Below the pieces are notes generated by a model that worked only from the letters and a program-made list of their open reading frames with translations, searched no databases and had not been told where the DNA came from. Of a DNA stretch of 64,000 nucleotides, positions 42,401 to 50,647 are shown piece after piece. Origin of the DNA: Escherichia coli (GTDB taxonomy: Bacteria > Pseudomonadota > Gammaproteobacteria > Enterobacterales > Enterobacteriaceae). Each line of letters starts with the position of its first letter. The first letter of the stretch is position 1. The DNA lies in NCBI RefSeq assembly GCF_016903815.1, contig NZ_CP069973.1, one strand, 5' to 3'. The position numbers and the translations under genes were made by a program.

Positions 42401-42814
42401 TTACGCCCGGACTAGCGCTTTTTCTGAAACCACCATTTTTATTTGCCCCTGCCTGGTGAAGTGTACGCTCATCCTGTGGCTTTTTTGTAGTTGCTGATAG
42501 AGCTCATCAGGTATTGCTAAGCTCTCAGCATATTCTTGCGGCGTATATTGGTAGGCTGCATGATGCTGCTGTTTTTGAAAACGTAGCTTATTGTACAGCG
42601 CCCAGACAATTAACACGACGGCATTCGCCACTGCCAGCAAAAAATAGAACTGAAGTCGGCTTCTGGCCTCGCTTTGCCAGTAATAACCCGTCAGCAGATC
42701 CATGGCGAATAAGAATATGAACAAAGCAAATAATGTCCATAAGATGGTTGTGGCAACATAATCAACCATTAAACGTACTGGCGATTGTCGGGTCGTAATA
42801 ATTAAATTGTTCAT
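42401..42814 (-). CDS. pgaD: PGA synthesis protein PgaD
   Basis: 137-aa two-TM protein; pga operon context. Confidence 0.93.
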
Positions 42815-42815
42815 A

Positions 42816-44141
42816 TTAACCTCTCAGAATCCCGCGATCGGGACTTACCCAACGGGCGCGTTGCTTTTTAGGCATCAACATGACTCGTGTAAATGATACC
42901 AATGTCGTTGCCAGACTCAGCATCCAGAAAATAACCGGGAACCAAATAATCCAGAAAAGCGATGAAGTCAGATTATGCTCATAGCGATTCTCGATCATCA
43001 GGCTGACAATAAATTGCAGTAAACATAACGTACACAATAATATTCCGGCAGTATGTGTCGCAGCGATATGTGTCAATTCAATATTTAACGGTACACCGGC
43101 AAGTTGGACTGCGTAAATAATGAAACCGACCAGGCAAGTGAAGGCCCATATTGTCGTCAGGCAGTATTCAAAAAACAGCGGCCACATTCGAAAGTTTTCT
43201 TTGCGCCACAACCTTGTCATATTTTTGAGGAATACTTCTGCACCGCCCTGAGCCCAGCGCAGGCGCTGTTTCCACAGCCCTTTTAACGTTTCAGGCATTA
43301 ATATCCAGCACAGCGCCCGTGGCTCGTAAAAAATCGCCCACTGATTCAACTGCAGCTTCCAGCTAATATCAATATCTTCGGTGATCATATCGTCACTCCA
43401 GTAACCCACTTCTGCCAGGGCGCTGCGACGAAATGCGGCAATAACACCGGAAACGGTAAATACGTTTCCATAGATACGCTGGGTTCGCTTGATCAAACCA
43501 ATAATTGAGGAATACTCGCCAACCTGAATTTTACCCACCAGGGTAGAACGTGTTCGAATACGAGGATTACCGGTTACGGCACCCACACGCGGGTTGTACA
43601 ACATCGGTTCCACAATATATGCCGCCGCATCGCGGTCTAATAACGCATCGCCATCAATGCACACCAGATATTCACTTTTCGCCGCGGCAGCTCCGGTTTT
43701 AAGCGCAATGGCTTTCCCCTGGTTTTGCGCCAGATGAATGACCCGCAGGTGGGGAATTTGTGCAGCCATGCGATCCAGGATGGCACGGGTTTTGTCTGTT
43801 GAACCGTCATTTACGGCAATAACTTCAATGTTCTCATAACGCTGTGCTAAAGCGGCGTGTATGGTTTCCTCAACGTTTTTCTCCTCATTAAAACAGGGAA
43901 TGATAATGGAGATAGACGGATTATCTTTCAACTGGGGAGCTGGTGCGTTTTCTCCCCACGGCCAGTGGCGTTCACGATAGACCCAGAAATAGACGCCGCC
44001 AACAATCCACATGATGGACATAAAAAACGGCCAGAAGAAAACGAACCTCATCATCAGTTCACCAGAGTGAAAGTACGCTACGCATAGGGGTATGCATAAC
44101 ACCAGACATAATATAAAAAACGATACGATGCGATTAATCAT
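42816..44141 (-). CDS. pgaC: Poly-beta-1,6-N-acetylglucosamine synthase PgaC (GT2)
   Basis: 441 aa; glycosyltransferase family 2 motifs including QRLRW. Confidence 0.96.
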
Positions 44142-46152
44142 TTTTCGGATACCAGGCTGTTGAAAACTCAGGACGAATAACGTCTATTTCAGGTTGGTTA
44201 TGCAGAAAATTGTCGGGATAATAACCATAGTTTTTCACTCCATTCAGTTGTAATAGGCTCATCCAGTGAGCGAGTTGTTGCGAAGAAATAGCCTGATGCT
44301 GACCATTTTTCTGCCAGTTTTGTGCCTGTAATTCTAAAATAGATTTGTCTTTAGCCTGAGGGATGTTTTTAATTTGATTGGTCAATTGTATTAACCATTG
44401 GTCAGCCGATTTTTCTGCGACACCTTCCATATAAGGCATAGCCATAATAGCGGTCCAGTCATAGCTTTTTAGGAAATCAGCATAATTCTGTGCAAACCAG
44501 GCTTCACTTTCAGGTTGTATTACCGGAAGTGCAAAAATATTTCGTGCAGTTTTAACATGTGGACCGCGAATGGCTTTTACGCGCGCACTAAGTTCTAAAG
44601 TGAAGTCAGTTAACGCACGACTTTTAAAGCGGGTCCACTGTTTAAATTGCTCCGGGTTTTGTCGAATTTCGCTCAGACTCCCGCTAAAGCCTGCTTGCTG
44701 ATAAGCCGTGATAGCCGGTGCACTGGCATCTTCATAATCTGAAAGCAAAGCATCATCGTGGAACAATATGCCATCAAAAGCAGCATGTCCGGCAAGATCT
44801 TCATATAACATGCCAACTTGTGCTCTGACTCTGTCATCGAAAGGAGAGAGACGGCGATATTGTTCAGGATGAATTTGTGCTTTTTTCTCCCCAGTCGGTA
44901 AGTATTTTACTCGCGTTAATGTGGGATCTAAATCCCAGCTTAATACCGGCATCCACGCATAGATGTTTACACCTGAGCGGGTACGTAATTGCCAGGCAAC
45001 CCGACTAAAAATATCTGCTTTCATTGGTAGCAAACGATTTGGAAACCAGACCTCTTTGACCAGCCCATCACCATCGGGATCAGCAAATGCCTGCAAATAC
45101 ACGGTTGATATTTGCATATCTTTCACCCGCTGAATTAGCACATCAATATTGCGATCCATTTGCTGGCGGTTTTCGTCATAAACGTAATCAAGATCGATAT
45201 GCATTATCCGTTGTGGTGATTTTTCCTGTACGGTAATAATTTGCTGGGCAAACTCTTTTAATGAGGGATTATTGGCGATTAATACTCGCGGAATGGAATC
45301 CAATTGTGACGCATTTGCCAAACCTGATTCAAGGGTGAAGAACATGTCATAACCGAGTTTTTTTAATTCCTCTATCGCTATGCCATTCGCTTCGCCATAA
45401 GGCCAAACAAAAACGTGTGGATTTACCTTAGCCTTTGTACGCAGGTATTCCGTCATTTTTACAGCATCCAGACGAATTCTTTCCCGGTATTCTGCTGCGG
45501 TTTCATACCGTGCGTGGTCAGTAAAATATGCACGATTTACATATACAGGCAATAAGCTGCCGGTGGCATTAGCCTGAATACCGTAGTGAGAATTCCATGT
45601 ATGAGAAGCGACCTCAACGAGCCGGGAACGCGCAACTTCTCGCACTTGTTGCCACGTGGCAAAATATTCTCGATCGACCATCTCATCGCCAAATTTTACT
45701 TGTTCATCCGCTGGCGTATCGACCCAACTGCCGACGGGGGCCCATACAGCAGGCCACTGGAAGGCCTGAAGAATTGGGAAGACGCGGGTATAAAAACTCT
45801 GGTAGCCGTCATCAAAAGTTAGCACTACTGCTTTTTCCGGTAGCGGCTTTCCTCCTTGATGTGCTTCACGAATTTGAGCAATACTGACCGGTTGATAACC
45901 GTTCTCGCGCAGCCAGGCAAATTGTTCACGCAGTGCTGATGTCCGCACTGACATAAAACGCTGGTCGGCAGCTTCGTCTTCAACGTTATGCCATGAAATC
46001 GCCACAAAACCATTATGCGGCCACGGTTGCTCGGCGAGTAAAGATTCGCGATCCTGTGGCGGTATAAATGATGTTCTTGACTGGCTAATGCACGCAGTGA
46101 GCATAATTATACTCACCAGCATCAGGAGATATTTATTTCCATTACGTAACAT
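44134..46152 (-). CDS. pgaB: PGA N-deacetylase lipoprotein PgaB
   Basis: 672 aa with lipoprotein signal (LTAC). Confidence 0.96.
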
Positions 46153-46160
46153 ATTTATCC

Positions 46161-48584
46161 TTAAAATCTGAATGTCATATCGAATTCAACGTATAAGTTG
46201 TGTTCTCTGTCACCGTCATAAGGTCGTTTTTCCCAGCGTAGCGTTGCGCCAGCATCAATCACGTCATTCCAGCTAATGCGTTGCCCGTAGCCGAGTTGGG
46301 TGACGACATCCGTGCCATAATGTTTTTGCCAGGAGGCACCAACACCTGCGCTGAAGATTTGCTCCCAGCTATTTTCATAGCTACGCCATAACAAATGACT
46401 TGCCTCAAATGCCGGAACAATATCGAACGTTTTTATAGGGTTGTAGTATGGAGTGTCGTGTTCTGTATTTTGTTCGTAATACAGATTGGGTAGGAAATCG
46501 ACAATCAAATATGGTGAAGACCAGATGCGTTCCTGACCCTCAAGTGAGACTTCATGACGCTGATTACTGTCAGAAAAATCAGTGAAAGCCCAGGAGACAC
46601 CGTACTTACGCCGCTCATTTTGATACCAGCGAACATAAGCCTGTGCACTGTTGCCTGTAACACCATTTTTCATTGCCCGTAATGGAACGCGGTGAGAGAG
46701 GCGTTCCAGTTGCGAACCAATACGCCAGTTATCATTAAAATCATACCAGCCAGACAGGCGCGCGCCGGGTTTATGCTCATGATTGAAAAAGCGTTCGGTG
46801 TACTCCGCCTCAAGCCAGATATTACGTGACCGCCACTCAACACCCGCAAGCCAGTCGCGAATAATCCCTTTTCCTTCGCTAAATTGTCCATCGGCATAAC
46901 CGAATCCAGCAAAACCGCGCCAGTTATCATTCAGCGGTGGTGAATAAACGATGGTGGTTAAGTCGACATCATGTTTGCCACTATCCGGACCTTCGGCATC
47001 AATTCCTGTTGAGCCAGCGATACGAAGCTCTGCAAGATTATGTACATCAACCGCACGTTTTAAACGTACAACGCCGGGATCTTGCGGTTCACGTTCGACA
47101 ACATCGTGCGTTAAGACCGCTGCCTGCTGCCATTCTTGTAACGTTAATGCTGTCCAGGCTTGTTCAACCTCCAGATTAATATTACGTGGCTCGATCACTT
47201 CTGCTTTTTTTAATTCATTTTCTGCCGCACGAGGCCAACCGCGGGCTTGTAACACACTCGCGTAATCAATGCGCAGTCCCTGATTTCCTGGTGCGTTATA
47301 AGCAAGCTCTCTGGCTGTCATTTCAGCCTGAGGAAGATCATTACTATATTTTGCTACGGTTGAGAGAAACGAATGCCCCTGTAACCAGGTATCATTCGGG
47401 ATGCTCGTAGGCGTGCCCATTAACCGAAGGAAAGGCGGCGAAGTATTAATGGTATGTTGGGTGACAGTTAGCGCGCCGGGATAATTTTCACTCTCCAGGT
47501 GGCTGTAAAAGAGATCCGCAAGTTCTTCATCGGATAAATCCGGGGCAATGGTCTCCTTGTGATAAAAGAGCTCTGTCATTATTGACTGTGCTTTTTTTGG
47601 CTGATGTTCTTTGAGATAAGCCGACGCAACCCAATATTGCGCCCAGGGCGGAATAATTTGCCCCGTCTTTTTTAAACGCTGATAGTGAGAAATAACGTCT
47701 TTATAACGATCGCGAGTTAATAACGCGCCAAGATGATCAACCTGAATACGCTGGTACTGGGCAGTGCGGTCAGGGTTATCATGCCACAGAATTTCTAATG
47801 CAGCGTATTGGGCGAGGGCCCGATCGGCAATGGCATAACGTTCACTTTCACTGCGCGTAGGCATAAATGACAGTCTGACCAGTTCGGCATGAATATCAGC
47901 GCGAATATCTGGCGTTAAATTGGCATCGTCAATCGCGGCAGCAAGTTGATTATTCCGTAATGCCTGCACGTATTCTGTGGGATATTGTTGCGTTAAGTCA
48001 TTTTCAGGTAATGACCCTGTCATCGCCCGTAATTCATCCTCATGCCGCCCCGCCAGTTTATAGATATAGGCTTCTGCGAGTAAATTAGCTTTGTCCGGTG
48101 CTCCAGAGTTAAGCTGCTTAAGTTTAACCAGCGCAGAATCATAGTGACCCGCATCTGCCAGGGTTAAAATTTGTCCCCGTTGATAATCCTTATTTTGCGA
48201 CTCCAGAGAGAGTGCCTTTTGCCACAGTGTAAGCGAGTTTTGCCATTGTTGCAGGTTACGATAAGCGACGGCGACAGCTGCATAACCACGCGCTGGTAAT
48301 TGCTGATGACGGTAGCGGTTGTAAACGGTAATAACCTGTTTATCTTGCCCGGCCCATAAGGCAATCTGTAACCAGTCAGCAATTTGGTTATTACTGAGTG
48401 CTGATTTTTGTGCAAACCATAACAAAGCTGGCTGAGTATTTCCCTTGCGAGCTTCGATAATCAATGCATCATAGGCATTATTAGCAGCACTCTTCGCCGC
48501 GGGACTCGCTGCTAAAAATGCGGCAGTAAGAATTTTCAAAGCCCATTTGGTTTTCGGGCACCTTTTTCTGCTACTTGAATACAT
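46161..48584 (-). CDS. pgaA: PGA outer-membrane export porin PgaA (TPR plus beta-barrel)
   Basis: 807 aa. Confidence 0.96.
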   Translation of the reverse strand: MYSSSRKRCPKTKWALKILTAAFLAASPAAKSAANNAYDALIIEARKGNTQPALLWFAQKSALSNNQIADWLQIALWAGQDKQVITVYNRYRHQQLPARGYAAVAVAYRNLQQWQNSLTLWQKALSLESQNKDYQRGQILTLADAGHYDSALVKLKQLNSGAPDKANLLAEAYIYKLAGRHEDELRAMTGSLPENDLTQQYPTEYVQALRNNQLAAAIDDANLTPDIRADIHAELVRLSFMPTRSESERYAIADRALAQYAALEILWHDNPDRTAQYQRIQVDHLGALLTRDRYKDVISHYQRLKKTGQIIPPWAQYWVASAYLKEHQPKKAQSIMTELFYHKETIAPDLSDEELADLFYSHLESENYPGALTVTQHTINTSPPFLRLMGTPTSIPNDTWLQGHSFLSTVAKYSNDLPQAEMTARELAYNAPGNQGLRIDYASVLQARGWPRAAENELKKAEVIEPRNINLEVEQAWTALTLQEWQQAAVLTHDVVEREPQDPGVVRLKRAVDVHNLAELRIAGSTGIDAEGPDSGKHDVDLTTIVYSPPLNDNWRGFAGFGYADGQFSEGKGIIRDWLAGVEWRSRNIWLEAEYTERFFNHEHKPGARLSGWYDFNDNWRIGSQLERLSHRVPLRAMKNGVTGNSAQAYVRWYQNERRKYGVSWAFTDFSDSNQRHEVSLEGQERIWSSPYLIVDFLPNLYYEQNTEHDTPYYNPIKTFDIVPAFEASHLLWRSYENSWEQIFSAGVGASWQKHYGTDVVTQLGYGQRISWNDVIDAGATLRWEKRPYDGDREHNLYVEFDMTFRF

Positions 48585-48820
48585 CCTGTATTACTCCATG
48601 TATTGCTAAAATCTCTCTCTGTATCTAATTACAGGTAACTGAAACGAAAGATATTTTTTTTTGCACATCATAATCCGTTATTAAACGCGGAAGAGAGACG
48701 TGAATTGTTGATGATGAGAAGAAGAAATGATGAGTAGAGTATCCATATAAAATCCTTTTCTCGCCCGAAAATCCATTCCAATGATGAGGAACTTCAGGAA
48801 TACGGCATAAATCCCAATGC
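48585..48820 (-). promoter_or_regulatory. pgaABCD long 5' leader (CsrA-regulated in K-12)
   Basis: Long untranslated AT-rich leader upstream of pgaA; position conserved; individual CsrA sites not mapped here. Confidence 0.5.
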
Positions 48821-49175
48821 CTTTTTCAAAATAAATTAGGATTAAAATAATTAAATCAGTAAATTCCGATGCATGATATCGGATTTTTCGAAAGTCCTGA
48901 TGAAATGCAGCGTTACTGTACTCACGGATTCAATTGTTATTCCTAATATATCTATGAATTAATGTTTTATAAGGATTTCCTTATAACCATTTATATGTAT
49001 TTGCAAGCCTGTCTTGTCGCGAAGAATGTATAAAGCACTAAGGTAATAATAATTGCAGTCTGCAACTATCATCATCGGTATTGTTTGTGGGCGGAATTTC
49101 ATATTGACAACAGTACAGTTCTTATATCTATTAATAATAGAAAGGGATCTACAACCTACAGATTGGTGTAGCTTT

Positions 49176-50543
49176 ATGGAAAAAGACTATTTGAGAATTA
49201 GTAGTACTGTATTAGTGAGCTTATTGTTTGGGCTTGCTTTGGTTTTGGTGAATAGTTGGTTTAATCAGCCAGGCGTTGAGGAAGTTGTTCCACGATCAAC
49301 CTATCTGATGGTAATGATTGCTTTATTTTTTATCGATACTGTTGCATTTATTTTTATGCAGTTGTATTTCATTTATGACCGTAGGCAATTTTCAAACTGT
49401 ATACTTAGTTTGGCTTTTCTGAGTTGTTTGATTTACTTTGTTAAAACCGTCATTATCATTCAGCAAATTATTGAGGGGCGTTTGACAAGCAGTGTTGTTC
49501 AAAATGACATTGCAATCTATTATTTGTTTCGTCAGATGAGTTTGTGCATATTAATATTTCTGGCATTGGTGAATAAAGTTAGTGAAAACACAAAACAGCG
49601 CAATTTATTTTCCAAAAAAATGACTTTGTGCATAAGTTTGTTTTTTGTTGTTGGGGGGCCGATAGTTGCTCACATACTTTCTAGTCATTATGAGAGCTAC
49701 AATTTACACATTGCCGAGTTAACCAATGAAAATGATCAGGTGGTTTGGAAAACATCATATGTTACCATAATGATTTTCATGTGGTTAACCTTGCTTTCAG
49801 TTAATCTATACTTTAATGGTTTACGCTGTGATATCTGGAATGGAGTGACGGTGATTGCTTTTTGTGCCGTACTGTACAATGTCTCTCTTTTATTTATGAG
49901 CAGGTATAGCGTGTCCATTTGGTATATTAGTCGCACTATTGAAGTAGTCAGTAAGTTAACCGTTATGGTAATATTTATGTGCCATATATTCAGTGCGCTA
50001 CGAGTAACAAAGGACATTGCACATCGCGATTCCTTAACCAATATATTTAACAGAAATTATTTTTTTAATGAACTGACAGTTCAATCAGCATCGGCCAAAA
50101 AAACGCCTTATTGCGTCATGATTATGGATATCGACCACTTCAAAAAAGTCAACGACACCTGGGGGCATCCGGTTGGCGATCAGGTGATAAAAACAGTGGT
50201 GAGTATCATTGGGAAAAGCATACGGCCAGATGACCTTTTTGCGCGCGTCGGCGGCGAAGAGTTTGGCGTCTTGCTGACGGACATCGATACTGAACGTGCG
50301 AAAGCTTTAGCGGAAAGGATTCGGGAAAATGTTGAGCGTTTAACTGGTGATAATCCTGAATACGCCATACCACAAAAAGTGACGATTAGTATTGGCGCTG
50401 TTGTGACTCAGGAAAATGCGTTAAACCCGAATGAGATCTATCGACTGGCTGATAACGCACTATACGAGGCGAAAGAGACCGGGCGTAATAAGGTGGTAGT
50501 AAAAGAGGCAGAAATTCTTATCAACCGCAAGGATGATGAATGA
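49176..50543 (+). CDS. dgcT: Membrane diguanylate cyclase DgcT (YcdT)
   Basis: Multi-TM N-terminal domain plus GGDEF domain with RVGGEEFGVLL active-site motif. Confidence 0.92.
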   Translation: MEKDYLRISSTVLVSLLFGLALVLVNSWFNQPGVEEVVPRSTYLMVMIALFFIDTVAFIFMQLYFIYDRRQFSNCILSLAFLSCLIYFVKTVIIIQQIIEGRLTSSVVQNDIAIYYLFRQMSLCILIFLALVNKVSENTKQRNLFSKKMTLCISLFFVVGGPIVAHILSSHYESYNLHIAELTNENDQVVWKTSYVTIMIFMWLTLLSVNLYFNGLRCDIWNGVTVIAFCAVLYNVSLLFMSRYSVSIWYISRTIEVVSKLTVMVIFMCHIFSALRVTKDIAHRDSLTNIFNRNYFFNELTVQSASAKKTPYCVMIMDIDHFKKVNDTWGHPVGDQVIKTVVSIIGKSIRPDDLFARVGGEEFGVLLTDIDTERAKALAERIRENVERLTGDNPEYAIPQKVTISIGAVVTQENALNPNEIYRLADNALYEAKETGRNKVVVKEAEILINRKDDE

Positions 50544-50605
50544 GTCTGTCGCTAGTTGTCGACCTCCGCCTGGGGCTTCTCATCCCCCCGGTCTATGCAA
50601 TATAC

Positions 50606-50635
50606 GAAAAAAAAGCTCGTACTTTCGTACGAGCT
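50606..50635 (-). terminator. serX intrinsic terminator
   Basis: On minus strand: hairpin agctcgtac-gaaa-gtacgagct followed by U8. Confidence 0.8.
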
Positions 50636-50647
50636 CTTCTTTAAATA

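Follow-up and report, generated by a model that had tools for sequence, protein, structure and literature searches.

Does the membrane cyclase DgcT serve the polysaccharide synthase PgaCD, beside whose operon it is encoded? The 64,000-nt stretch of Escherichia coli DNA analyzed here (the window) carries the standard E. coli biofilm-polysaccharide operon, pgaABCD, together with its divergent neighbor dgcT (ycdT), the gene for a c-di-GMP-making enzyme. An earlier note on this DNA had described dgcT as a supply gene and the pair as an intact local signaling module acting on a c-di-GMP-activated synthase. Activation of PgaCD by c-di-GMP is established (Steiner 2013, as reviewed in PMC8461298), and supply of this c-di-GMP by DgcT is a published suggestion from gene position (PMC4287979). 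Throughout, what is said of control by CsrA, NhaR, and Rho, and of c-di-GMP activating PgaCD, comes from the literature, and the identity and intactness of the genes and the conservation of motifs and linkage come from the present sequence analysis.

The pga genes fill positions 42401 to 48584 of the minus strand in the order A-B-C-D, and each product has its characteristic Pfam domains. These are the outer membrane export porin PgaA, with TPR and beta-barrel regions (46161 to 48584; 807 amino acids [aa]; PgaA_barrel, E = 1.4e-137), the lipoprotein deacetylase/hydrolase PgaB (44134 to 46152; 672 aa; Polysacc_deac_1 and GHL13, E = 3.8e-145), the family 2 glycosyltransferase and PGA synthase PgaC (42816 to 44141; 441 aa; Glycos_transf_2, E = 2.2e-39), and its small inner membrane partner PgaD (42401 to 42814; 137 aa; PgaD, E = 3.2e-15). 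Gene junctions are tight, with pgaB and pgaC overlapping by 8 nt and pgaC and pgaD separated by 1 nt. An intergenic region of 591 nt, compared with 586 nt in K-12, follows, from 48585, the first base past the pgaA start codon, and dgcT then runs on the plus strand from 49176 to 50543, the last base of its stop codon, so the divergent orientation described earlier is correct.

All five open reading frames are uninterrupted. The four Pga proteins have the same lengths as in K-12 and contain no internal stops, differing from K-12 by 17 substitutions in PgaA, 12 in PgaB, 1 in PgaC (T269A), and 2 in PgaD (L16M and S121R); PgaC is identical to that of strain RIVM_C036569. Frameshifts in pgaC, pgaD, or dgcT, named in the earlier note as what would overturn its reading, were not seen. 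The 8,335-nt locus matches many RefSeq E. coli chromosomes at 100% identity, among them those of strains 7/2, AR_0067, and YDC107; these are genuine genes rather than a chance pattern. The locus is a complete, unbroken pgaABCD-dgcT, and dgcT and the serX tRNA gene have nothing inserted between them. The arrangement in this strain is ordinary and already published, as the note itself had acknowledged (PMC4287979, citing Jonas et al. 2008). Like about three-quarters of complete E. coli genomes, the strain has a full PGA biofilm-polysaccharide gene set and the adjoining cyclase, which matters little beyond annotation.

DgcT is an orthologue by position, divergent from pgaA and between phoH and serX, and an identical sequence is annotated as dgcT in RefSeq. 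Its start is the ATG at 49176 (1,368 nt, 455 aa), as in RefSeq genomes with the identical sequence, and not the TTG at 49053 given in the program-made open reading frame list. The large membrane N-terminal domain noted earlier is a full-length Pfam MASE4 match (PF17158; residues 41 to 274, E = 2.8e-69, 233.6 bits, profile positions 5 to 238 of 239), reported to have about eight transmembrane helices (PMC4287979). It is followed by a GGDEF domain (PF00990; residues 282 to 439, E = 2.9e-50, 170.6 bits against a cutoff of 23.8) whose GGEEF active-site motif is intact and can be read directly at residues 359 to 363 (50250 to 50264). Five residues upstream is the RxxD I-site, RPDD (residues 350 to 353; 50223 to 50234). 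Such I-sites are typical of feedback-controlled cyclases, while not being obligatory. The positions of GGEEF, the I-site, DID, and NDxxGH are invariant in an alignment of 15 MASE4-GGDEF proteins, and YcdT is described as an active cyclase (PMC4287979, PMC5635695). Overall identity to K-12 DgcT is about 96%. Residues 1 to 442 align without gaps with 14 differences (96.8% identity), 10 of which fall within MASE4.

The remainder of the protein departs from K-12. Codons 443 to 455, KEAEILINRKDDE, together with the stop form a lineage-specific 3' end (50501 to 50545, plus strand), delimited by junction alignments and comparison of tails across alleles, so that the protein ends in 13 residues different from those of K-12 and is 455 rather than 452 aa long. 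The corresponding 3.26 kb of K-12 holds a different dgcT tail, encoding RDVVNFCESP, along with IS3, a gene fragment, ycdU, and rtT-like repeats. By these alignments, the tail of the 455-aa protein is the ancestral one, and that of the 452-aa K-12 protein is a derived form that arose with the 3.3-kb insertion. The description of all five genes as full length consequently needs one amendment: it stands for the pga genes and for the intact 455-aa reading frame of dgcT, but K-12 is unusable as a yardstick for the dgcT 3' end. That the K-12 reference DgcT bears a derived C-terminal tail is a modest point that could interest c-di-GMP researchers.

Beyond dgcT lies a remnant of an rtT-like repeat (50546 to 50647, no strand assigned) that aligns to the serX-proximal repeat annotated as RtT in K-12. 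A terminator-like site was detected within it, and a hairpin at 50614 to 50635, with A8 on one side and a T-rich stretch on the other, probably acts as a bidirectional terminator for serX and dgcT. The serX gene for tRNA-Ser(GGA) follows on the minus strand (50648 to 50735; ARAGORN and Rfam tRNA) with its 3' end toward dgcT. An Rfam search of 48000 to 51200 gave this tRNA as its sole passing match, with no RtT match in the shortened repeat; for the pgaA leader no curated family exists. The serX site, a hotspot for island insertion, is unoccupied in this strain; elsewhere, the position between dgcT and serX has received IS3 and ycdU (K-12), a P4-type integrase island, IS200C, and, in EDL933, pdeT (PMC4287979).

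The intergenic region was compared with K-12, with transcription starts given as the positions aligned to that strain. The long pgaA leader placed by the note between the two genes is 238 nt on the minus strand (48585 to 48822), its +1 placed from the aligned K-12 leader of 234 nt, which has six CsrA sites (Wang 2005, as cited in PMC4052769) and for which CsrA binding and Rho-dependent termination have been demonstrated (PMC4052769). It carries six substitutions relative to K-12 and is 4 nt longer because of a homopolymer run at 48654 to 48662 (T9 on the plus strand, A9 at +161 to +169 of the leader) that has five residues in K-12. All eight GGA motifs are kept, and their relative positions match those in K-12. 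The predicted antiterminator hairpin, CsrA controlled and hiding a rut site by the mechanism in PMC4052769, pairs CsrA sites with a rut half-site and spans +61 to +107 (48716 to 48762, minus strand); its lower stem is as in K-12, its two substitutions (+82 and +88) are apical, and its predicted folding energy is −6.0 kcal/mol, compared with −6.4 kcal/mol in K-12.

A consensus promoter scan found 9 sites against 7.7 in shuffled sequence and missed both the known pgaA promoter and a conserved TTGACA block, so promoters were placed by alignment and conservation. Upstream of the leader, the pgaA promoter and control region (48823 to 48895, minus strand) contains two blocks, ATTAAAATAATTAAATCAG and GATTTTTCGAAAG, that a five-way alignment shows to be conserved down to an orthologue of 63% identity. 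Between them is the palindrome TCCGAT-N7-ATCGGA (48865 to 48883), also found as a stem in the site scan. The pga promoter requires NhaR (PMC2675270, PMC4052769), and we infer that 48823 to 48895 is the NhaR control region. On the other side, the candidate dgcT promoter and 5' untranslated region (49065 to 49175, plus strand) is 100% identical to K-12, compared with about 90% for the remaining spacer, whose least conserved part is 48905 to 49064. It includes TTGACA at 49104 to 49109. The CATATTGAC core of CATATTGACA is invariant in all five aligned sequences, the 63% orthologue included, as is TTATAT within the downstream TTCTTATATCTATTAAT block, the rest of which is variable. A single ANGGA motif (AGGGA, 49143 to 49147) lies 29 to 33 nt ahead of the dgcT start codon. 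One consensus CsrA motif has been reported for ycdT (PMC6028588), and DgcT is repressed by CsrA (PMC5635695).

These comparisons make it very improbable that the locus has been cryptically disabled by the A9 run, the leader substitutions, or the divergent spacer. The 4 extra nucleotides, the six substitutions, and the weak conservation of 48905 to 49064 are what such an explanation could draw on, but no change affects any GGA motif, the hairpin stem, or either promoter-like block, and the sequence is common to many clinical isolates. Genuine disruptions in the nearest relatives are of another kind, IS1 in the leader and IS200C beside serX.

With the locus taken as intact, it likely works as follows. 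Leftward transcription of pgaABCD would start at an NhaR-dependent promoter some 238 nt ahead of pgaA, with CsrA on the leader GGA motifs blocking translation at the ribosome-binding site and also opening the leader hairpin, leading to early transcription termination by Rho. The dgcT gene, read rightward, would have a conserved promoter of its own and likewise be held down by CsrA. Once made, DgcT would sit in the membrane, where MASE4 probably senses a signal and the GGDEF domain would make c-di-GMP; binding of c-di-GMP jointly by PgaC and PgaD would then stabilize PgaD and switch on polymer synthesis. Since both genes are CsrA repressed, the synthase and the neighboring cyclase would be expected to appear together when repression is lifted. 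Joint induction of pgaABCD and dgcT has been reported in E. coli W overexpressing narQ (PMC13124679).

The step in which DgcT product reaches PgaCD is one we infer, and it is here that the labels of the earlier note meet the literature. Expression of DgcT is very weak (PMC4287979, PMC5635695); in K-12 the protein is below detection, and the c-di-GMP pool of a pdeH mutant owed nothing to it (PMC5635695). Control of PgaD levels and stability has been shown for another cyclase, YdeH/DgcZ (PMC8461298). Because DgcT is undetected in K-12 and PgaD is controlled by DgcZ, "supply gene" overreaches the present evidence, as does "local signaling module." In the literature collection searched, no paper on ycdT, ydeH, and PgaD together came up. 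Most likely, PgaCD draws c-di-GMP from several cyclases, of which DgcT is a conditional one and DgcZ the chief one in K-12; DgcT is unlikely to be an exclusive local source.

A stronger form of local signaling would have DgcT beside or touching PgaCD in the inner membrane as a private c-di-GMP source that leaves the cellular pool unchanged. Both partners are inner membrane proteins, CsrA targets both mRNAs, the absence of a DgcT share in the global pool (PMC5635695) is how a local source would be expected to look, and linkage to pga, described below, is kept in two architectures and two MASE4 clades and is absent in paralogues. However, failure to detect DgcT in K-12 is a simpler account of the missing pool effect. 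The cited literature contains no interaction of DgcT with PgaC or PgaD; the GGDEF domain of DgcT has a single specific partner on record there, CsrD (PMC5635695). PgaD is controlled by DgcZ (PMC8461298), a soluble cyclase encoded elsewhere. A dedicated private source is improbable.

A further question is whether the two neighbors are kept together for a reason. Among 5,426 E. coli genomes, pgaCD is present in 4,399 and dgcT in 4,237, and about 1,030 lack both. Co-presence and co-absence of adjacent genes are weak functional evidence, since single deletions can remove such genes together. Linkage was also followed across more distant cyclases. A scan of 100,044 reference genomes with generic GGDEF peptides ([IM][MLI]DID[HND]FK and [VI]NDTWGHP) returned 80 unrelated GGDEF loci (L009 to L088) and no MASE4 proteins. 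A 135-nt degenerate DNA pattern built from MASE4-specific invariant residues matched the window and 10 of 11 MASE4-GGDEF loci in a local check (missing L090) and none of the 80 generic loci, and was used to scan metagenomes. L090, an E. coli locus encoding a 77%-identical DgcT, had been considered as a second paralogue and was rejected; it is the same locus with pgaABCD, a divergent allele.

In the DgcT clade (64 to 100% identity), each of the 40 informative metagenome loci had pgaA in divergent orientation, and the spacer had a median length of 586 nt; the sample is dominated by gut metagenome E. coli and says little about other genera. pga was near none of 61 loci of the YeaI/CdgI clade (flanks exceeded 3 kb on each side in 10 of these) and none of 6 loci from other clades. 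In Enterobacter, in two species-level variants (L003 and L127), the gene for a MASE4 cyclase of a separate clade follows pgaD after a 69-nt gap, in the same orientation. A close, 80%-identical relative of this enzyme occupies the same chromosomal site without pga, so the cyclase there has a life independent of pga.

These patterns bear on the view that dgcT and pga are neighbors by history only, traveling together in one variable phoH-serX segment while DgcT acts elsewhere, for example in motility, or is largely silent. The genomes lacking both genes are consistent with single block deletions (PMC5635171), and very weak expression and the pga-free Enterobacter relative fit as well. In a 3-HP import assay, which measures something other than PGA, pgaABCD had an effect and overexpression or deletion of dgcT had none (PMC13124679). 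However, the pairing persists down to 63 to 64% DgcT identity with spacer length kept, and a different MASE4 cyclase clade has joined pga in another orientation in Enterobacter, which makes inertia alone hard to accept; PgaCD is, moreover, a proven c-di-GMP receptor (PMC8461298). History alone is an unlikely explanation.

The comparative data make a functional link between DgcT and PgaCD more plausible. A bolder possibility, to which we give no more than a minor chance, is that selection has repeatedly paired MASE4-type cyclases with the PGA machinery. DgcT would then be a dedicated, membrane-signal-gated PgaCD activator that is silent in the laboratory, and the K-12 form, with its insertion-rewritten C terminus, may represent it poorly. 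Taken as a whole, the locus is best explained, with good confidence, as an intact standard locus in which DgcT is one conditional c-di-GMP contributor among several. Linkage of pga with MASE4 cyclases beyond E. coli, in two forms, strengthens the old suggestion from gene position and gives reason for studying DgcT under CsrA-derepressed or host-like conditions.

The closest known system is the K-12 pgaABCD-ycdT locus (PMC4287979, PMC5635171; also Wang 2004/2005 and Jonas 2008, as cited there). It shares all five genes, their order and orientation, both flanks (phoH and serX-ghrA), Pga lengths, and leader motifs at 96 to 99% nucleotide identity. It differs in having a 234-nt leader with A5 instead of 238 nt with A9, a 452-aa DgcT that lacks the last 13 residues of the 455-aa form, ends in a different tail, and has 14 further substitutions, and, in the dgcT-serX gap, IS3, a gene fragment, ycdU, and duplicated rtT-like repeats, all absent from the window. 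Other strains have variant versions. Enteroaggregative strain 55989 has IS1 between ycdT and pgaA and a ycdT frameshift, and enterohemorrhagic strain EDL933 has pdeT/vmpA inserted after ycdT (PMC4287979). The same two weak points are struck in the nearest relatives of the window, by IS1 in the spacer/leader (TOE51) and IS200C in the dgcT-serX gap (47538), whereas the window, with neither insertion and no frameshift, represents the uninterrupted state.

Among cyclases, DgcZ (YdeH) is the functional comparison, being CsrA repressed and making the product that stabilizes PgaD and activates PGA synthesis (PMC8461298, PMC5635695). DgcZ is encoded away from pga, and its effect on PgaD is demonstrated, whereas that of DgcT is only suggested. 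DgcZ itself is a soluble enzyme whose CZB domain binds zinc. CdgI (YeaI) and DgcX have the MASE4-GGDEF architecture of DgcT (PMC4287979, PMC5635695) and are 35 to 44% identical to it. Unlike DgcT, loci of the YeaI/CdgI clade have no pga nearby. Yersinia HmsT, the cyclase needed by the pga-like hms system, is a possible analogue of DgcT. In the Enterobacter loci, as in the window, a PGA operon adjoins a MASE4-type cyclase with GGEEF and RxxD motifs. That site is elsewhere on the chromosome, between fabI and the sap operon, and the enzyme is only 45% identical to DgcT, which it resembles no more closely than it does other MASE4 clades. Following pgaD on its own strand, the Enterobacter gene could be cotranscribed with pga, possibly as a fifth gene of the operon, whereas dgcT in the window is divergent.

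In the pga locus of the window, the ORF list and raw sequence show four genes on the minus strand and then one on the plus strand: pgaD (42401-42814, 137 aa), pgaC (42816-44141, 441 aa), pgaB (44134-46152, 672 aa), and pgaA (46161-48584, 807 aa), then a 591-nt spacer (48585-49175) and dgcT (49176-50543, 455 aa). The region 48585-50543 singled out by the earlier note is exactly the spacer plus dgcT. ARAGORN places serX, an 88-nt tRNA-Ser(GGA) gene on the minus strand, at 50648-50735. Pfam scores were very strong for PgaA_barrel in PgaA, Polysacc_deac_1 and GHL13 in PgaB, Glycos_transf_2 in PgaC, the PgaD family in PgaD, and MASE4 plus GGDEF in DgcT, where residues 359 to 363 read GGEEF and are preceded, at a distance of five residues, by an RxxD I-site (RPDD). 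With K-12 and a close relative as references, PgaA, PgaB, PgaC, and PgaD were of reference length, had no internal stops, and carried 17, 12, 1, and 2 substitutions, respectively, relative to K-12. Many RefSeq E. coli chromosomes match the entire 8,335-nt locus at 100% identity and have its genes annotated as pgaABCD and dgcT. The earlier note had raised frameshifts as a possible flaw, and none were found; the pga and dgcT reading frames are unbroken. The divergent anatomy it described is thus confirmed by ORFs, Pfam domains, the GGEEF motif, the leader, and intact genes, and this layout is, as it also said, already in the literature (PMC4287979).

The K-12 pgaA leader is 234 nt long (Wang 2005, as cited in PMC4052769). 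Aligning the spacer to K-12 with this leader as the reference gave 238 nt in the window (48585-48822). A run of A9 at 48654-48662 (+161 to +169), instead of the A5 of K-12, accounts for the 4 additional nucleotides and also for the spacer length, which at 591 nt was the longest compared with 40 metagenome loci of the DgcT clade (median, 586 nt). The hairpin at +61 to +107, which conceals a Rho entry site until opened by CsrA (Figueroa-Bossi et al., PMC4052769), retains the K-12 lower stem and has two substitutions, both apical, with a nearly equal predicted energy (−6.0 versus −6.4 kcal/mol in K-12).

A five-sequence alignment, which included orthologous spacers from loci with DgcT only 63 to 77% identical, revealed four conserved islands: the ribosome-binding region of pgaA; the block ATTAAAATAATTAAATCAG; GATTTTTCGAAAG, which is separated from ATTAAAATAATTAAATCAG by the palindrome TCCGAT-N7-ATCGGA; and, next to dgcT, CATATTGACA with TTCTTATATCTATTAAT after it. 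The stretch formed by ATTAAAATAATTAAATCAG, the palindrome, and GATTTTTCGAAAG is the promoter and the probable NhaR region; we infer the NhaR assignment. The near-perfect palindrome (48865-48883), immediately upstream of the pgaA promoter blocks, has one arm that differs in K-12 and is possibly a site bound by a LysR-type regulator (NhaR).

Toward dgcT, the 111 nt upstream of the start codon are identical to K-12, compared with about 90% identity in the middle of the spacer. These 111 nt contain a single ANGGA motif, 29 to 33 nt ahead of the ATG, a candidate CsrA site that agrees with the one consensus site reported for ycdT (dgcT) (PMC6028588). Expression of ycdT is very weak (PMC4287979). DgcT is CsrA repressed; in K-12, it and only three other GGDEF/EAL proteins were below the detection limit, and it made no contribution to the elevated c-di-GMP level of a pdeH mutant (PMC5635695). 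Joint binding of c-di-GMP to PgaC and PgaD stabilizes PgaD and activates the synthase, and control of PgaD has been demonstrated for the cyclase YdeH (DgcZ) (PMC8461298), which is encoded elsewhere. The locus anatomy and the c-di-GMP target are therefore established, but DgcT as the supplier is not, and the description of dgcT as a c-di-GMP supply gene in a local signaling module was an overstatement.

The association of pga with MASE4 cyclases was also surveyed in other genomes. Among 5,426 complete E. coli genomes, 4,399 carry pgaCD, 4,237 carry dgcT, and about 1,030 have neither, in line with PMC5635171. Because the genes are adjacent, this co-occurrence is weak functional evidence, and evidence from outside E. 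coli is stronger. For example, a locus with a 63%-identical DgcT orthologue (L006) keeps the divergent pgaA and a spacer of similar length. In the Enterobacter locus L003, whose Pga proteins are 34 to 71% identical to those of the window, a same-strand MASE4-GGDEF gene with 45% identity to DgcT is found 69 nt downstream of pgaD; an 80%-identical relative of this cyclase occupies the same chromosomal site in Enterobacter locus L008, without pga. In a pairwise identity matrix the Enterobacter cyclase is no nearer to DgcT than to other MASE4 clades, indicating two pga linkages on different branches of the family.

A locally validated, MASE4-specific DNA pattern scanned against a metagenome collection returned 120 loci, 4 of them without a qualifying cyclase match. 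The DgcT clade (64 to 100% identity) contributed 48 loci, with divergent pgaA in 40 of the 40 having enough upstream sequence; the other 8 had at most 633 nt upstream and were uninformative on pga. No pga genes were nearby at the 61 loci of the YeaI/CdgI clade, which are paralogues of DgcT, or at 6 loci from other MASE4 clades, and at the single Enterobacter-clade locus (L127) pgaABCD preceded the cyclase gene in tandem, on its strand. This linkage, an association in a sample that is mostly E. coli, makes a functional tie more plausible.

Both Enterobacter arrangements (L003 2754-10347; L127 786-8057) have pgaABCD followed 69 nt later by the same-strand cyclase gene of the different clade. In L008 (9001-10356) the cyclase sits at the fabI-sap site with an AraC-type gene where pga would stand, reflecting either insertion of pga at this site or its loss from the L008-type locus. 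A Citrobacter MASE4-GGDEF gene 38% identical to DgcT (L091 9001-10332) is surrounded by genes resembling those of plasmids or phages (ParM, ParE toxin, P7-type repressor), indicating that at least one family member is carried on a mobile element.

Divergence is uneven along the locus in some genomes. Relative to the window, identity in E. coli CP125919.1 (L090, 2234-10359) falls from 95% for PgaD and PgaC to 92% for PgaB, 87% for PgaA, and 77% for DgcT, which has no recognizable RxxD at the usual position. In L184 it falls from 91% (PgaC) through 82% (PgaB) and 76% (PgaA) to 64% (DgcT), and L206 and L162 show a similarly steep rise in divergence. The dgcT/pgaA end either evolves much faster than pgaC or is exchanged by recombination.

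At the 3′ end of dgcT, homology to K-12 is lost at about 50500 and regained at about 50546. A 45-nt stretch (50501-50545) replaces 3.26 kb of K-12 (L001 9912-13173) containing its own dgcT tail, IS3, a gene fragment, ycdU, and rtT-like repeats. The last 13 dgcT codons are lineage specific: DgcT has 455 aa versus 452 in K-12, with 14 substitutions in residues 1 to 442 and a different tail beyond. The Pfam GGDEF domain ends at residue 439, ahead of the break, so catalysis should be unaffected. Of the 5,426 E. coli genomes, 1,436 have the direct junction between dgcT and serX. Tails of the window type diverge along with the remainder of the protein (window, KEAEILINRKDDE; alleles about 90% identical, KEAEILINCKDDD; a 76%-identical allele, TEAENLMNWKDDD), and the K-12 tail, RDVVNFCESP, is invariant in every occurrence. 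The window tail is therefore ancestral and the K-12 C terminus derived; the K-12 tail arrived with an insertion on the 3′ side of serX, a typical island site. This hotspot is empty in the window strain, where about 100 nt of rtT-like repeat, not recognized by Rfam, is left in the dgcT-serX gap. In other genomes the site holds IS3/ycdU, a P4-type integrase island (L089), or IS200C (L094), and pdeT is inserted after ycdT in EDL933 (PMC4287979). Overall, nothing here is new in kind; the linkage data and the tail polymorphism add modestly to what was known.

Apart from a single insertion each, two strains match the window completely over the aligned locus: TOE51 has IS1 within the pgaA leader (48777-48786, about +37 to +46), downstream of the native promoter, and 47538 has IS200C at 50640/50641, adjoining the serX/dgcT terminator hairpin. 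These strains are the nearest relatives of the window, which has neither disruption. The TOE51 insertion recalls published strain 55989, which has IS1 in the spacer together with a frameshift (PMC4287979).
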